From a virus (Duplodnaviria > Caudoviricetes): a DNA stretch of 53,100 bases. A program made the translations under genes and the position numbers. The notes under the pieces were generated by a model. That model saw only the letters and a list, made by a program, of their open reading frames with translations, ran no database searches and was not told the origin of the DNA. Shown here piece by piece: positions 8,378 to 52,905 of the stretch. Positions within the stretch are counted from its first letter, which is position 1. Every line of letters starts with the position of its first letter. Location of the stretch: IMG/VR virus record IMGVR_UViG_3300027985_001356, positions 1-53,100 of that record. One strand, written 5' to 3'.

Positions 8378-9034
8378 TCAGCTTGTCCGCAGGATGACGC
8401 AATCTGTCGGTGGTGTTGCTGGTTCTACGTTGGTCCAAAATACTGCGCTATTGCCTGGGCATTCAGCAGGCTCTCCGTGTTTCCGTTCCTTGGTTTTCAA
8501 CTTGCCTTTGCGCTTGCCTGTCTGGTGGTACTTCGCTGGGATTGTCTCGCCTCCCCAAATAAATGAGATCCGATCTCTAGGCCAAATTAGCCAGCCTGGA
8601 AGGTGTCCGGGATGAGGCCTCAGGTGGCGGATTGATTCGATGTTGAATTGACACCATACAAAACGCATTCGACCTGCATGACGCTCTTGTTCGGCAAGAT
8701 ACTTCGCCCACCACCTCCTCCCCGATCCTCGCGAACCTGGATGATTGCAATACGTCACAGTCTCCCAACAGCTCTCTAAACCGCACAATCTCTCGGGTGT
8801 CCAATCAGTCGGACAGGGATCATAAACCCCATCAATGGGTGAACCAAGCGTCCTAGCAACCCAGTCCATCCACTCAGGCGGGGTCCACCAATCCGCAGAA
8901 TAATTCTGGTGACGGATGCTGATGTTTTCGGGGCCGGTTTTCTTTGTCATGAGTTTTTGCATCTTTCCGGGCAACCGCATCCGCTTTCTCAAGGACTCCG
9001 TATCCAACGGCACCTTTCTCATCTCGACCATCAC
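8378..9034 (-). CDS. Phage Dam-like DNA N6-adenine methyltransferase homologue with atypical motif IV
   Basis: DWWTPP, YDPC, GL..W..YCNHPG, RISF; NPPY replaced by NHPG. Confidence 0.7.
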   Translation of the reverse strand: MMVEMRKVPLDTESLRKRMRLPGKMQKLMTKKTGPENISIRHQNYSADWWTPPEWMDWVARTLGSPIDGVYDPCPTDWTPERLCGLESCWETVTYCNHPGSRGSGRRWWAKYLAEQERHAGRMRFVWCQFNIESIRHLRPHPGHLPGWLIWPRDRISFIWGGETIPAKYHQTGKRKGKLKTKERKHGEPAECPGNSAVFWTNVEPATPPTDCVILRTS

Positions 9035-9702
9035 CCGCCCCTCCTATCGACATCGACAACAGATCTCCAGTTGGCCGATTCGCGAATCCTGGACAAGATG
9101 CGATGTCCATAGCGCTTACTGAACTCATCGGCATGCAGGTTCGTGGTTATAACTGTGCGCGCTTTCCTTCCTGCACAGAAATCAAATAACTCATCCAACC
9201 CAGAGATAAGCATCCCCTTTTTGTCCGCATACTCTGTCCCTAAATCATCCACGATAAGAGAGCTGGAGTTCTTCCATCTGCGTCGAAAGTCTTTATCGAA
9301 AGCCCCTGCGCCAAAAAATTCCGTCGCCCTCATAAAAAATGGAGACTTCCCCCCATGATCTCCTTGCCATCTCAAAGCTGCGAAAGTCTTCCCTGTCCCA
9401 GTTCCACCCGACAGGATTCTGATCTGTCTCTTGTCTTCCATGAACCCTTCCATCTGTTTCATGGCTTCACTGTTTGGATCGAAGGAATCCTCGTACACTC
9501 GCTCGCTGAGGAGGTCTGGCGCGTTTCCCTCTTGGAGGATGGTCGCACGCATCTCGTGTTCCCTTCTTGCCTGCTTTCGCGCTAACGCATCTCGCTGCGC
9601 TTGAACTTCCGCATCTCTAGCCTCCCACTCCTCATCTGTGAGTTGGGGGACAAGAACAGCTGGAAATAGCTGCTCCACACTGTCCGAAATAGGCTTACTC
9701 AT
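9031..9702 (-). CDS. DnaC/IstB-like AAA+ helicase loader
   Basis: Walker A GGTGTGKT, Walker B LIVDDLG, ITTN, RILSRI. Confidence 0.9.
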   Translation of the reverse strand: MSKPISDSVEQLFPAVLVPQLTDEEWEARDAEVQAQRDALARKQARREHEMRATILQEGNAPDLLSERVYEDSFDPNSEAMKQMEGFMEDKRQIRILSGGTGTGKTFAALRWQGDHGGKSPFFMRATEFFGAGAFDKDFRRRWKNSSSLIVDDLGTEYADKKGMLISGLDELFDFCAGRKARTVITTNLHADEFSKRYGHRILSRIRESANWRSVVDVDRRGG

Positions 9703-10562
9703 AGCTTTACCTCTCCTCGCGGGTAAGAGTCGTGCGGATGCGGTTCTACTCGGCCAAACCGTACGTCATCATCCGCAGTCCTTTTGCCTTTGCGCTGCGA
9801 GATAGATATCTGGTCCCAGTTCCTGCGGAGACCTGTCGGAGATGAAATCACCCCTGACCAGAAGGTGTCCTCCAAGGCCCACGCGATCATATCCTCTATT
9901 GCTTCCCAGGAATGCTTATCTTGCTCATGCGCAATCCGGAGTTCGTCCGCCCACTTCAGCTCCCGCTTCGCACGCACAGCTGGCGCAAGCTTCGCCAGCT
10001 TGCCACCAGGAGCATTCGCGACAACCATGTCAGCAAGCTTCTTCGACAACCGGTGCGCATTGGCTGAGATTTTCGCGGGATCAAGAGATTTCTTTGGTTC
10101 CAACGTAGCATTATCACTTTGGTTACTGCCCGTAGTCTCCGTTTTGTTCCCGTCTGTTCCTTCGTTCCCGGAACGTTCGGAACCGTTCCCGTTTGTTTCG
10201 TTTTTATTTCTTTCTCTCCACTTACGTGTCCTCGGGGTACTCAGGTCGGAGAGGCGGTCCCATGATTTATCCCACCCAACGATTTCAATACCTTTGGGTG
10301 CGTGCGCGATCAGCCCAGCAAGTTGCGCTTTAGCGAGCCCCTCGGACATCAAGCGCTCACCTATGTCGCTCGCCTCGGTCAACAGCGTATAGCGGGCTAG
10401 GTACCTAGCGGACGACAGCTCATGAGGAACGAGCCCTGCGCAATTATGCGCCTTATTCAGCAACAGCAGATGCAGATAGGCTGTCGTTCCCCAGAATCCC
10501 GCGGCATCACATCTGGGGTCCTTTGGTAAGAACGCATTAATTTTTGCCCAACACGCGATCAT
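9699..10562 (-). CDS. Replication initiator (lambda O-like organisation)
   Basis: Directly upstream of DnaC-like gene; RTRKWRER then low-complexity linker; C-term DTFWSGVISSP.GLRRNWDQ. Confidence 0.8.
   Translation of the reverse strand: MIACWAKINAFLPKDPRCDAAGFWGTTAYLHLLLLNKAHNCAGLVPHELSSARYLARYTLLTEASDIGERLMSEGLAKAQLAGLIAHAPKGIEIVGWDKSWDRLSDLSTPRTRKWRERNKNETNGNGSERSGNEGTDGNKTETTGSNQSDNATLEPKKSLDPAKISANAHRLSKKLADMVVANAPGGKLAKLAPAVRAKRELKWADELRIAHEQDKHSWEAIEDMIAWALEDTFWSGVISSPTGLRRNWDQISISQRKGKRTADDDVRFGRVEPHPHDSYPRGEVKL
10135..10220. other. Putative replication origin inside initiator gene
   Basis: Clustered GTTC(C)/GGAAC repeats then T-rich tract. Confidence 0.55.
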
Positions 10563-10804
10563 CTGGCCTCCCATGCCTTTTTCGTAAATGGGACTTTGCC
10601 TTTTGTCAGCTCAGCGATGGCCCAGCCTATTTTGATCCCAGGCCGAAAATCCCCAGTCGCGAGCGCATAGACCGTGGAGAGGCTGCATCCTAAGGCCTCG
10701 GCCACCTGAGCAGGGCTTTTGCTATGCTCCTGCATCCAGTTTCCAAAAGAAGTTTGCCAACTTCCCTCGCGGGGGTTGTAGCCTCTACGGTTTGATTTTT
10801 TCAT
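10559..10804 (-). CDS. Cro-like helix-turn-helix regulator
   Basis: SPAQVAEALGCSLSTVYALATG..RPG...IAELTKGKV. Confidence 0.85.
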   Translation of the reverse strand: MKKSNRRGYNPREGSWQTSFGNWMQEHSKSPAQVAEALGCSLSTVYALATGDFRPGIKIGWAIAELTKGKVPFTKKAWEAR

Positions 10805-10946: not shown

Positions 10947-11225
10947 TCAGAACGGCAAGTCATCAGTACTGGGGGGCACATCTGCTTTTTTCTCTGATGA
11001 AGGCTGAGAAGCCGACATCCCGGGGCAAGTTCCAAAATGGCAGTTATATCGGTCGCCCTCAGGTGAGTTTGGATAGGCCTTGTGCGCGATTGGGATGCCA
11101 TCTCCGAGATCTAGCCAGCAATCTCCATCCACTTTGGGGTCCTCATCCATTGCCATCCACTTATTATTTTTTGATTTTGCCCAGAAGATGGGCGCGGAGC
11201 ACTTGTTGCATGTTTTGATTTCCAT
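10947..11225 (-). CDS. Zn-binding small protein with SSB-like DDLPF C-terminus
   Basis: CNKC...HFGTC; disordered tail ending STDDLPF. Confidence 0.8.
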   Translation of the reverse strand: MEIKTCNKCSAPIFWAKSKNNKWMAMDEDPKVDGDCWLDLGDGIPIAHKAYPNSPEGDRYNCHFGTCPGMSASQPSSEKKADVPPSTDDLPF

Positions 11226-11344
11226 CAGATTCCTCTCTGTGGTTCACAAAGTAGCATTATTACTTGACTCCTCCGATATCGACAGTGCCTTTGATGGTGA
11301 ACCACGACCAACGCACTGGGATGGAGATGTTTACGTCTAAGCAT
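11225..11344 (-). CDS. 39-aa peptide (not in ORF track)
   Basis: MLRRKHLH...QRGI; overlaps upstream stop and TGATG-coupled downstream. Confidence 0.4.
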   Translation of the reverse strand: MLRRKHLHPSALVVVHHQRHCRYRRSQVIMLLCEPQRGI

Positions 11345-12299
11345 CTTTCACCTCCCCTGTCTCCGGATCGTGCCCAGGCTCCTTGTCCTTCTTGAGCTTA
11401 TCCTTGACGGCCTTAGTGCCTTTCGCGACGGGCTCAGATGGCGCCTTATCCTGATTCTTATGCTCAATCGTGGCCTGCCAGCTGGTCTCACCATCGCGGA
11501 TGGTCGTGTAGATTTGACGTAATTCTACAAGTTCACTGGGTGTAACCTTGCCCAAATCATGACCCAGGTACTCGGAGAGGTCCGCGGGGTTGATGTTTAA
11601 CTCTGCGAAGGCGTCCGCCAGGCGCCGCCTCTCGGCATCTGGGTCCTTAGCGGCCTGGTTACTGGCGGTCTTGCGAATCGCCTCCTCTGCTTCGTCTTGG
11701 AGCCACCCAGGGATCAGCCTGAGGCCATTGGTCCGGATTGCTTTAGAGACCAGCGCCCCCTGTTTGTTGAGAAGTTCATCGTCTGAGGCTCGGATGATGT
11801 AGACGGTTTGGCCATGGCTGCCTTTTCTCGTGCCCACGAGGTGTTGGCCCTGGCGGTGACTGTTTCGTTCTACGGTCTTTTGCACAGTGATTTGCGTCGT
11901 GTGGCTGGCGTTTCGCTGGTAGTCGGTGACTGTGACGGCGACGATCCGCTTTTCGTCATCGTCATAGACTGTGGTCTGGGACGATTTGATGTTTCCCATG
12001 ATCTGGATCGCTTGCTCGACGAACCGAATGGACAGGCCTTCGATGCCTTGCCCAATGGGCTTGCGATAGCGCGCGACTTTGGCGAAGGCTGGGCGTTTGC
12101 ATTCCCTGAGGAGCTCTGTGCGGACCTGGTCGAGGTTGCGCGGATTCTGCATGGCCATGAGGTAGCTGGCCTCTTCGGCCGCCTTAACGTGGGCTGCGAC
12201 GGCTGTGGCCGCGGTCTCGTGCATGGTGGTGATCTGCGAACCCTGAAATCCGTCTTGTTTGACGAGTGATACGGGTAGTGTTGAGTCGCTATTGTCCAT
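11337..12299 (-). CDS. Putative single-strand annealing recombinase
   Basis: Follows YqaJ nuclease; PRN..ECKRPAFA..Y.KP..IEGLSIRF core; DPETGEV tail typical of phage SSAPs. Confidence 0.7.
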   Translation of the reverse strand: MDNSDSTLPVSLVKQDGFQGSQITTMHETAATAVAAHVKAAEEASYLMAMQNPRNLDQVRTELLRECKRPAFAKVARYRKPIGQGIEGLSIRFVEQAIQIMGNIKSSQTTVYDDDEKRIVAVTVTDYQRNASHTTQITVQKTVERNSHRQGQHLVGTRKGSHGQTVYIIRASDDELLNKQGALVSKAIRTNGLRLIPGWLQDEAEEAIRKTASNQAAKDPDAERRRLADAFAELNINPADLSEYLGHDLGKVTPSELVELRQIYTTIRDGETSWQATIEHKNQDKAPSEPVAKGTKAVKDKLKKDKEPGHDPETGEVKDA

Positions 12300-12480
12300 T
12301 CTTCATTCTCCGTTTAGTTCGTTCGAAAAGGTGATCATCCGTCTCCATCCATAAACCTTGCCACTTGTTCCAGGCGCAATGGTCGTTAGGCGCCTGTGCA
12401 GGTGGCGGGTCTCCGCCGTAGATTTCTCTGCATATTTTAGATTCTTCAAACTCTTTAAAAGGGTCTATCATTTTCCCCAA
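12289..12480 (-). CDS. Small hypothetical protein
   Basis: Overlap-coupled, AGGAG SD. Confidence 0.55.
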   Translation of the reverse strand: MGKMIDPFKEFEESKICREIYGGDPPPAQAPNDHCAWNKWQGLWMETDDHLFERTKRRMKNGQ

Positions 12481-13544
12481 CTCCTAGGAACGTTGAAGGG
12501 ACGTGCGCCTGGCTTTGTTTTGGTGTGATCTTGTATTGCCTGATGCGCAACTCCCAAGAGCTGTCCAAACGCCGGGTCGTCTGCGACGCTGGCATTTAAT
12601 TCGATAGTATTCAAGAGCTCTTGATATGCTGCTTTCCAATCGATCTTCGTTGAATCCTTGTTCTTCTTCCAGGTGATGCGCTCAGGAACACCAGTCCCTG
12701 TTGGATTGATAATCCCCATTGCATCACCAATCGCTTCTTTGATTCGTTGTACTAGTCGTGCTTCTTTTTGCTCGAGCTCTTTCCGTTCCGATCTGGTTTC
12801 CCTGAGCACAGAGAGCACTTGGGATATCTCGGGTGTTGCCTCGATCATTCTCTGATCGTTTTTTGGGAACCGTCTGTTTAGGTAATCTCCATAGGAGTCC
12901 GAACCATCGGGCTCGAGCGGAATGCCTTCGATGATATGTTTCTGCCAAAAGGTTTTGGCTTTCTCGACCAACACTTCCTCAAGCTCTGGATCGCGCAGGA
13001 TGACATAGTCTGTTGGAACTCCATCGATGAACGCGGTCAAATCCCAACGAGTGATATCTGCATCGTAGTAGGCTCTGGCGACGTAGAGATTCCAGGCGCA
13101 TTGCGTAATCTCCCATGCGGGGACCTCATCCGTGCCAGGAGCGCCATAATGGTGTGAGAGCCATGATGCGTGGGTTTTGATTTCAAGACCGCTGACAGGA
13201 GGTGTTGAAGTTTCCACCGTTCCTTGCACGTGTATATTTTGCAGCATGAAGGGATAGGAAACTCCATCGGGGGTTGCTAGCGCCCATGGAATCTTTGGAT
13301 GCGACAAGGTCCCGGGGGTATCGATGGTGACTCCATGCCTTTGTGCGTAGTCATCCCTGATAGGGCCTTCCAGGAGATTGCCCCATTTGACCCGATCGGT
13401 TTCGACGAACGGCACACCTTCGCCCCTCTTATCTAATACGACATCGATAGCGCCCCCATAGGGACTCACGCCACAGATCTTCGCGATGTCGGTCGCAGTG
13501 ATGCCTTGTTGGCGTTGTTCGAGTTGCTTGTTGGTTAGTGCCAT
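12468..13544 (-). CDS. YqaJ-like (lambda exo family) exonuclease
   Basis: RQQGITATD, WGNLLE, ATPDG, LEIKT. Confidence 0.92.
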   Translation of the reverse strand: MALTNKQLEQRQQGITATDIAKICGVSPYGGAIDVVLDKRGEGVPFVETDRVKWGNLLEGPIRDDYAQRHGVTIDTPGTLSHPKIPWALATPDGVSYPFMLQNIHVQGTVETSTPPVSGLEIKTHASWLSHHYGAPGTDEVPAWEITQCAWNLYVARAYYDADITRWDLTAFIDGVPTDYVILRDPELEEVLVEKAKTFWQKHIIEGIPLEPDGSDSYGDYLNRRFPKNDQRMIEATPEISQVLSVLRETRSERKELEQKEARLVQRIKEAIGDAMGIINPTGTGVPERITWKKNKDSTKIDWKAAYQELLNTIELNASVADDPAFGQLLGVAHQAIQDHTKTKPGARPFNVPRSWGK

Positions 13545-14186: not shown

Positions 14187-14549
14187 TCACCCTCTTCTTT
14201 TTTTGTCGTGGTTTATTTGCCTTTGCAGCTGTCCGAGTCTGCGCTCATTTCGCTCGAATTCCCTTTCTTCTTCGGTCTTTGGCTTGCAGGTCTCCTGGTG
14301 ACACTGCAACCGGGGAATCTCTGGATCTTCTCCCTCATCCACCCTTGCGATAGGCGCATCCTTACCCCTGTACAAAACGTGTGTTCCCGCCTGGCTTGGT
14401 TTTGTGTCCATAGGCATCCAGTTCCCAAGCTTGGATCTAGCCCACAAAATCAGTGAGCCACAGCGCTTACAAAGCGTCCGACGGAGATCGCGGAGAGATT
14501 CAATCGGCACCCCCTGCACCTGCTCTAATCCTCCTTTTTTCGACGCCAT
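14187..14549 (-). CDS. Zn-binding protein, paralogue of 10947..11225
   Basis: CKRCGSLILWARSKLGNWMPMD...CHQETC. Confidence 0.75.
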   Translation of the reverse strand: MASKKGGLEQVQGVPIESLRDLRRTLCKRCGSLILWARSKLGNWMPMDTKPSQAGTHVLYRGKDAPIARVDEGEDPEIPRLQCHQETCKPKTEEEREFERNERRLGQLQRQINHDKKRRG

Positions 14550-52363: not shown

Positions 52364-52411
52364 CAAGAAATGAACCAAGAGGTGACCGATTGGTCCTACA
52401 TGGTACCTTTT

Positions 52412-52420
52412 TGGTATACT
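52412..52420 (+). promoter_or_regulatory. Extended -10 promoter for RHH operon
   Basis: TGGTATACT about 20 nt upstream of RHH start. Confidence 0.5.
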
Positions 52421-52441
52421 TTGCAATCAGGATGTGTCATG

Positions 52442-52612
52442 ATGGATACCATGGATAAAGACAAAGAAGAAAGACGGATCAATATCCGGATCTTGCAGAG
52501 GGACTACGATCTAATCAGGGATGCCGCGCGCCTCAAGGGGCTATCTGCGAGTGCCTATGCTCGGATGGTTATTATAGAGGTTGCGAGGCAGGCTCTCGGG
52601 GAGGCAGCGTGA
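52442..52612 (+). CDS. Ribbon-helix-helix regulator (DUF1778-like)
   Basis: RRINIRI..RDYDLIRDAARLKGLSASAYARMVII. Confidence 0.8.
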   Translation: MDTMDKDKEERRINIRILQRDYDLIRDAARLKGLSASAYARMVIIEVARQALGEAA

Positions 52613-52905
52613 GCGATCGGTTGCAGTTGTGGTGGCTCTCTTTTGTTGGAGATGGTTTTTTGGGCGTATCTATCGTCCTGGCTGTCGATTTCATCACCGC
52701 AGTGACTACTGCACATATGCTCGGCATCAATCCGGGGGGCGAAGTTAAGGGGCACCCTTGGAGTGGTGAGAAGTCTGTCCCAGACAGCTATGTAGGACGT
52801 CTTTTGAGCACCGCTGAGCTCGATGAGTTAATGGAGGTTATCGGATCGCGGAGGTGCACCCCGGAGGAAGTTGATCAGGTTTTCGGCAAAGGCGAGGAGA
52901 TATAA
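52609..52905 (+). CDS. Hypothetical protein
   Basis: GTGA-coupled; WWLSF..FLGV...GINPGGEV...GRLLS. Confidence 0.75.
   Translation: MSDRLQLWWLSFVGDGFLGVSIVLAVDFITAVTTAHMLGINPGGEVKGHPWSGEKSVPDSYVGRLLSTAELDELMEVIGSRRCTPEEVDQVFGKGEEI

Follow-up and report, generated by a model that had tools for sequence, protein, structure and literature searches.

A phage zinc-ribbon protein with an SSB-type C-terminal tip, encoded beside a recombination exonuclease and a probable annealing protein

[quoted passage not shown] The gene lies in a window of 53,100 bp, the whole stretch of DNA that was analysed, which is a complete virus record with direct terminal repeats. The protein belongs to an unannotated family, phrog_5984, whose genes are linked to those of recombination exonucleases and in some cases fused to them. 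Comparison of protein endings across this family indicates that the tip is selected but optional, and the tip itself is very probably functional. Because of the recurrence of the tip and the coupling of the family to exonuclease and annealing genes, we favour, at somewhat less than an even chance, a reading in which the protein is an adaptor of the recombination module, offering a mimic of the SSB C-terminus (SSB-Ct) to host partners of SSB or to the phage annealing protein.

The gene and its product

The gene (Table 1) starts with ATG, preceded at a distance of 5-6 nt by the ribosome-binding site GAGAGGA, and terminates with TGA after 92 codons. Judged by homology, it is a real gene and not a chance frame, since its best relative is 51% identical (E 3.4e-21). 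The protein reads C6-N-K-C9 ... H63-F-G-T-C67, and its last residues are S-T-D-D-L-P-F. In an alignment of 30 family members H63 and C67 are invariant, while C6, C9, W15, D27, P30, G34, Y60 and T66 are at least 90% conserved, and because of this conservation the CCHC ligands and the conserved aromatics can be regarded as real. An earlier note on this DNA, made from the letters alone, had described a 92-aa protein with a CNKC...HFGTC core and conserved aromatics, and the open reading frame and the alignment bear out that description.

An AlphaFold2 model calculated with the 30-member alignment places residues 1-70 in an all-beta core (pLDDT 86-94) composed of five to six short strands, with two short helices or helical turns at the HxxxC motif. 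Residues 71-92 have no secondary structure in the model, and since their pLDDT reaches only 56-68, the linker is probably flexible, in agreement with the flexible linker ending in DDLPF that had been noticed previously. Both parts of the protein are acidic, with a net charge of −2 for the core and −2 for the tail. A six-frame scan of the window for an acidic residue followed by [IL]-P-F at the end of an open frame returned this gene as the sole example. We infer from the sequence that the CCHC core binds zinc, and what we propose below for the ligand of the core, for binding by the tip and for the identity of its partner is likewise a reading of sequence.

Table 1. Features of the window discussed in the text, with the evidence for each
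Feature	Position	Strand	Basis
CCHC zinc-ribbon protein gene with SSB-type tip	10947..11225	−	ORF list; phrog_5984, E 7.8e-9; stop at 10947-10949
Putative CCHC zinc-ribbon core, residues 1-70 (C6, C9, H63, C67)	11016..11225	−	Alignment ligands; AlphaFold2
Flexible P/S-rich linker, residues 71-87	10965..11015	−	pLDDT 56-68, without secondary structure
SSB-Ct-type tip D-D-L-P-F, residues 88-92, free C-terminus	10950..10964	−	Sequence
Probable single-strand annealing protein, 320 aa	11337-12299	−	phrog_3657 (unannotated function), E 3.9e-54
YqaJ/RecE-type recombination exonuclease	12468..13544	−	PF09588, E 8.9e-21; phrog_434, E 6.3e-59
Second zinc-ribbon copy, 120 aa, charged/basic tail	14187..14549	−	phrog_5984, E 2.3e-7
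HTH protein	10559-10804	−	Pfam and PHROG
DnaD/O-like initiator	9699-10574	−	Pfam and PHROG
DnaC-like loader	9031-9702	−	Pfam and PHROG

The zinc-ribbon family

The phrog_5984 profile, for which no function is annotated, matches residues 3-69 of the protein. At E<=0.1 Pfam contains no family for it, and NCBIfam none except for a chance 12-bit RiPP match; at the same threshold the protein was without a match to the DUF669 and Gp2.5 profiles (Pfam and NCBIfam) and to the PF00436 SSB profile (Pfam). Weak matches to DUF6083 were seen in three of the 30 alignment members (Pfam, best E 0.013). Structural comparison gave a similar picture: Foldseek found no solved fold for the core at E<=1e-3, VIA-align against 48,161 chains reached a best Z of 2.9 with no OB-like or ssDNA-binding fold matched, and the BFVD matches were uncharacterised phage proteins only, for example from Mycobacterium phage 40AC.

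An exhaustive search of 1.84 billion representatives yielded 280 homologous representatives at E<=1e-3. A word-index search with the single protein returned only the protein itself, and tblastn against 50,697 phage records gave no match. P0066, a typical member of the family, matches 148 cultured-phage records, 138 of which are Gordonia phages; among the 40 of these 148 matches listed, one is annotated 'exonuclease' and the others 'hypothetical protein'. After the domain, the net charge is positive in 135 of 164 members (median +2, typically HRK-type), and only 8% of members are net negative there. When the endings are compared, the SSB-type tip of the query replaces this usual basic tail.

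Occurrence of the SSB-type tip

The SSB C-terminus is DDDIPF in E. coli and DDDLPF in B. subtilis SsbA; the capsid of the phage studied here finds its best matches in Roseobacter and Pseudomonas phages, at 43-44% identity. Like bacterial SSB, the zinc-ribbon protein presents D-D-[IL]-P-F at a free C-terminus after a P/S-rich disordered linker, but the carrier is a putative zinc ribbon of 70 residues with no match to an OB fold, and the linker comprises about 20 residues as opposed to about 60.

The endings of 187 family proteins were read for the motif [DENG][ILV]PF. Only six carry it, where 0.014 would be expected from the family's own composition, an enrichment over chance of about 400-fold; in the control, none of 120 homologues of the neighbouring gene ends in this way. 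The six are the query itself (DDLPF), P0002 (NDIPF), P0003 (GELPF; an N-terminally cut fragment), P0036 (DGIPF; 168 aa), P0067 (DDIPF; 121 aa, with an N-terminal helical extension) and P0134 (DDIPF), and looser acidic endings on Phe occur in P0180 and P0183. The linkers of the six tipped members are 10-20 residues long, rich in P, A and S, and mutually unalignable. P0001, P0002 and P0003 nevertheless retain the tip at 50-63% identity despite their diverged linkers, and the tip is also found in three members less than 40% identical to the query. It is the excess of six observed over 0.014 expected that leads us to regard the tip as selected, though optional. The proposal that the protein mimics the SSB tail is supported as far as sequence goes, by a D-D-[IL]-P-F ending on a disordered linker and by its recurrence far above chance in divergent members. 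The expectation that homologues keep DDxPF stands in part, in that the ending recurs above chance but is confined to a small minority of the family.

The history of the tip was approached through a tree of 175 core domains, poor in resolution, which included five full-length tipped rows. In the free tree these five rows require four changes, while uniting the tipped members gives a tree that the test does not reject and that outscores the free one (p-AU 0.54). Repeated independent gain of the tip was dropped for this reason, and a single origin with later losses explains the tree as well as several gains do. The nearest tree neighbour of the query and P0002 is a tail-less protein, P0004.

Further searches added few tipped loci. 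P0001, P0134 and P0036, used as single queries, found no locus in viral contigs; two loci were found there with alignment A2 and six with P0067. A metagenome scan produced 13 loci, of which only the P0002-type ones (L012 and L013) have the tip, and a genome scan for related loci returned one 15-residue match only, which is uninformative.

Genomic context

In the early minus-strand operon of this phage the second zinc-ribbon copy is followed by three small ORFs, the exonuclease, a 63-aa ORF, the 320-aa protein and the tipped gene; a 142-bp gap, the HTH, DnaD/O-like and DnaC-like genes and, further on, RusA follow. The gene had been placed just downstream of exonuclease and annealing genes, and this position is confirmed, with a YqaJ/RecE-type exonuclease and a probable annealing protein upstream on the same strand. 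The two zinc-ribbon copies flank the exonuclease/annealing module: the second copy, upstream of the exonuclease, is 40% identical to the query over 62 aa of the core (E 6e-14) and is without the tip. The 63-aa ORF between the exonuclease and the 320-aa gene (12289-12480, minus strand) overlaps both and has no family match; in Gordonia phage Rofo and in phages Lilbeanie and RoadKill small genes occupy the corresponding slot between exonuclease and annealing gene.

The family keeps similar company elsewhere. Eight of the 148 matched cultured-phage records, from phages of Actinomycetota and Bacillota, were inspected, and in seven of the eight an exonuclease/annealing pair lies within 3 kb of the zinc-ribbon gene; the sample consists mostly of Gordonia phages that are related to one another, and the seven cases are therefore not independent. 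The closest association is that of Rofo gene 48 (L026, 8001-9347), in which the zinc ribbon (residues 1-73) is fused N-terminally to an exonuclease that matches the Pfam YqaJ family at residues 102-238 and is annotated 'exonuclease' only. In Geobacillus phage phiOH2 a 61-aa zinc-ribbon gene is flanked by those for a YqaJ exonuclease and RecT. The zinc-ribbon gene of Tardus, JuJu, Lilbeanie and RoadKill precedes exonuclease and RecT by one to five small genes, and in Rhodococcus phage Mbo4 it is found 2.6 kb downstream of the exonuclease. In Gordonia phage Finkle it follows RusA, with a RecA-like recombinase and an ssDNA-binding protein nearby. At the four metagenomic viral loci with tail-less members, by comparison, no exonuclease or annealing gene was present within 7 kb.

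The contexts of two tipped members were read, that of this phage and that of L001, a 7.5-kb fragment encoding P0002. In L001 the tipped gene follows RusA and a 122-aa ORF and does not follow an annealing gene. The closest whole-genome relative, phage record G001 (51.5 kb, 97% complete), carries two zinc-ribbon copies. One, the orthologue of the second copy, is 168 aa long, and two bases separate its stop from the start of the exonuclease; the other is the tail-less P0004, located after the RusA region and 49% identical to the query over the core. The description of the gene as standing at the usual ssb position accordingly fits this genome only, the orthologue being placed after the RusA region in both L001 and G001. 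In other respects G001 looks equivalent to the phage studied here, and it has neither a PF00436 SSB nor the tip.

A beta-rich 142-aa ORF of this phage (7198-7626, minus strand) has no family match, with a weak DUF3104 lead from the Atlas. Its counterparts in L001 (883-1251) and L009 (about 9734-9990) lie directly upstream of the zinc-ribbon gene; in this phage the ORF is still found after RusA, and it is the zinc-ribbon gene that has moved.

The complete 53,100-bp genome gave no match to the PF00436 SSB profile, which was positive in 10 of 14 control genomes, and the PHROG and Pfam scans (10 + 58 and 10 + 45 ORFs) detected no family of the SSB, Gp2.5 or DUF669 type, so the earlier note's remark that no OB-fold SSB was seen in the genome is upheld. 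The phage may still encode an SSB of unrecognised fold. The same scans found no polymerase, helicase or primase family. With only an initiator and a loader and none of these proteins, replication must lean on the host.

The neighbouring 320-aa protein

The 320-aa protein has a large family, with 2016 proteins at E<=1e-5 and no name. Its AlphaFold2 model (pLDDT 88.5) consists of an alpha/beta RAD52-like N-terminal domain, a three-helix C-terminal domain and a disordered tail that contains HDPETGEV. The top Foldseek matches of the N-terminal domain were RAD52 (E 0.04) and Sak of 80-alpha (E 0.09), neither of which is significant. In VIA alignments RAD52 matched with a Z of 5.0 over 133 residues, and residues 209-276 matched the C-terminal domain (CTD) of Red-beta in complex with an SSB peptide (8tfu_A) with a Z of 5.5 and an rmsd of 4.3 (61 of 70 residues); these annealing and Red-beta-like matches fall within Z 4.5-5.5, which for this tool is a middling zone, and the best row of all (Z 6.5) was an unrelated LptE sheet. 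On the basis of the fold matches and its position beside the exonuclease, the protein is probably an annealing protein. A complex prediction for its residues 198-320 with the zinc-ribbon protein, run without controls, gave a score of 0.00 (mark 0.32) and bears on binding in neither direction.

Homologues of the 320-aa protein (P0191-P0233) conserve HDPxTGEV in the disordered tail, and many of the longer ones add (D/E)EPDWM(K/R)G and terminate in PPxGE(G/E/A)F-COOH, an acidic tail of their own ending on Phe. The protein of the window ends directly after HDPETGEVKDA (C-terminus at 11337-11400).

Proposed role and alternatives

In the reading that we favour, the gene product would be an accessory subunit of the phage exonuclease/annealing recombination module. 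The zinc ribbon would anchor the protein at the recombination machinery or at its DNA substrate, and the tethered tip would dock on a partner, its Pro-Phe-COOH and acidic residues seated in that protein's SSB-tip pocket. A candidate partner is a host enzyme that interacts with SSB, such as a replication-restart, exonuclease or helicase protein; an alternative is the phage annealing protein, whose predicted C-terminal domain resembles the SSB-tip-binding domain of Red-beta. In either case the partner would be brought to recombination intermediates without a phage-encoded SSB. Several observations count against this reading. With only six of 187 members tipped, the core function does not need the tip, and the tail-less P0004 serves in a phage that is otherwise equivalent. 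The position after RusA in L001 and the four metagenomic loci devoid of module genes weaken the link to recombination, and the Z values that connect the neighbour to annealing and Red-beta-like proteins are middling.

A more specific form of the adaptor, to which we give rather low probability, is a matchmaker, an 'SSB tip on a stick'. Here the ribbon would hold the exonuclease or the DNA end while the tip loads annealing or host restart proteins, rendering the module independent of the host SSB tail. If this were so, the phrog_5984 zinc ribbon would be an unrecognised third component of many phage exonuclease/annealing systems, and its tails, whether basic, coiled-coil or SSB-type, would be interchangeable.

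Next after the adaptor ranks a decoy, which we consider unlikely. As a free protein it would flood the cell with SSB tips and titrate host SSB-interacting enzymes off SSB-coated DNA. Its targets might be exonuclease I, RecJ, RecQ or RecO, or defence systems responding to SSB-type proteins, and the effect might be to shield phage recombination intermediates or to blunt the host response; the zinc ribbon would then do no more than carry the tip stably or allow oligomerisation. Small size, acidity in both core and tail, and the loss of the basic tail common to most of the family make the protein a poor candidate for anchoring on DNA, and phage SSB-type tips have been linked to host exonuclease I and to a defence system (bioRxiv 10.64898/2026.04.29.721553). 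However, a protein with one tip would compete poorly with tetrameric SSB without high expression or oligomerisation, and the steady coupling of the family to exonuclease and annealing genes, including the fusion, speaks for a function within the module.

The earlier note had also offered a true substitute for SSB without an OB fold, in which the core would bind ssDNA, perhaps cooperatively, and the tip would recruit host enzymes as that of SSB does. The architecture of a globular domain, a disordered linker and an acidic tip copies that of SSB, the nearly invariant aromatics W15 and Y60 lie in the core, and non-canonical ssDNA binders with DDDIPF tips have been published (PMC13687109). Most carriers of the zinc ribbon, tipped or not, are moreover without an SSB: among 14 records with a family member, PF00436 was found in one, Finkle, and in none of the other 13; with related phages in the sample and no base rate, these counts are not evidence of anticorrelation with ssb. 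Finkle, on the other hand, has both, and a zinc-ribbon protein and an SSB can therefore coexist. G001, having neither SSB nor tip, suggests a lineage that manages on host SSB; the tip is absent from most of the family; and the core of the query copy is acidic and its usual basic tail is missing. The consistent partner of the family is the exonuclease/annealing module, to the point of gene fusion. We therefore regard this suggestion, in contrast to that of a tail mimic, as disfavoured and distinctly improbable.

Least probable of all, and in our view very unlikely, is a tip without function, an accident or a relic such as the 3' end of an ssb gene that illegitimate recombination joined to a protein working like its tail-less relatives. 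In favour of this reading, the nearest of these relatives and the second copy in the same genome both lack the tip, and the tree is compatible with one origin for all the tipped proteins. Against it stand the retention of the tip in P0001, P0002 and P0003 while linkers diverged, its presence in three distant members and its enrichment over chance.

Relation to known systems

The tip of SSB is a hub for at least 17 partner proteins (PMC10018359), and its use by mobile elements has precedents. Prophage DUF669 proteins carry DDDIPF tips (PMC13687109), Bas52_0087 combines two OB folds with FDDDIPF (bioRxiv 10.64898/2026.04.29.721553), and tipped mobile-element proteins of this kind have been proposed to plug into host nucleic-acid metabolism (PMC13687109; bioRxiv 10.64898/2026.04.29.721553). 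The zinc-ribbon protein resembles them in being encoded by a mobile element, in lying outside PF00436 and in having a host-type SSB tip. Unlike them, with their recognised ssDNA-binding folds, it has a carrier with no match to a Pfam family (E<=0.1) or to a solved fold. Among the papers searched, supplements aside, no zinc-ribbon carrier of an SSB tip is described, and a link between phrog_5984 and recombination genes is likewise absent from them. The zinc ribbon would add a probable non-OB carrier to the known mimicry of SSB tips by mobile elements.

Closest to the protein itself are the 'hypothetical proteins' of phrog_5984 in Gordonia, Rhodococcus and Geobacillus phages, which have the same CxxC...HxxxC domain and the same neighbourhood of exonuclease and annealing genes. 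The members inspected in cultured phages differ from the query in their short basic tails (HRK-type), and none of them is SSB-tipped. Fused to recombination genes or wedged between them, the phrog_5984 zinc ribbon may be an overlooked third component of exonuclease/annealing systems.

The lambda Red system offers a parallel for the adaptor. The CTD of Red-beta binds a 9-residue SSB peptide and can contact both lambda Exo and the SSB tip (PMC6393309). Lambda Red and this phage share an exonuclease and annealing pair, and in both a small module would mediate the SSB-tip contacts; the tip belongs to host SSB in lambda, whereas here a phage protein would supply it, and the fold match between the neighbour and Red-beta is only middling. 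Recognition of host SSB by RecT proteins is through its last 7 residues (10.1101/2020.04.14.041095), and for phage annealing proteins generally the recognised segment is given as the last 7-9 residues (10.1101/2020.04.14.041095; PMC6393309; PMC13490951). Compatibility between the annealing protein and the end of host SSB reportedly limits the portability of recombineering between bacteria (10.1101/2020.04.14.041095; PMC13490951). If a phage protein does supply an SSB-type tip inside the module, it would represent a natural solution to this portability problem and a candidate helper for recombineering.

Other genes of the window

Two further loci of the window deserve mention. Among small genes of early type on the minus strand, 1018-2178 encodes 386 aa that include a Pam3_gp18 baseplate-plug domain (E 8.1e-17); the structural module is distant and on the plus strand. 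Near the end of the genome, at 52370-52905 on the plus strand, a gene whose 80-aa product gives weak ribbon-helix-helix matches of the NikA/TacA type is followed by an overlapping gene for a 98-aa protein (phrog_13485), a pair that could be toxin-antitoxin-like.
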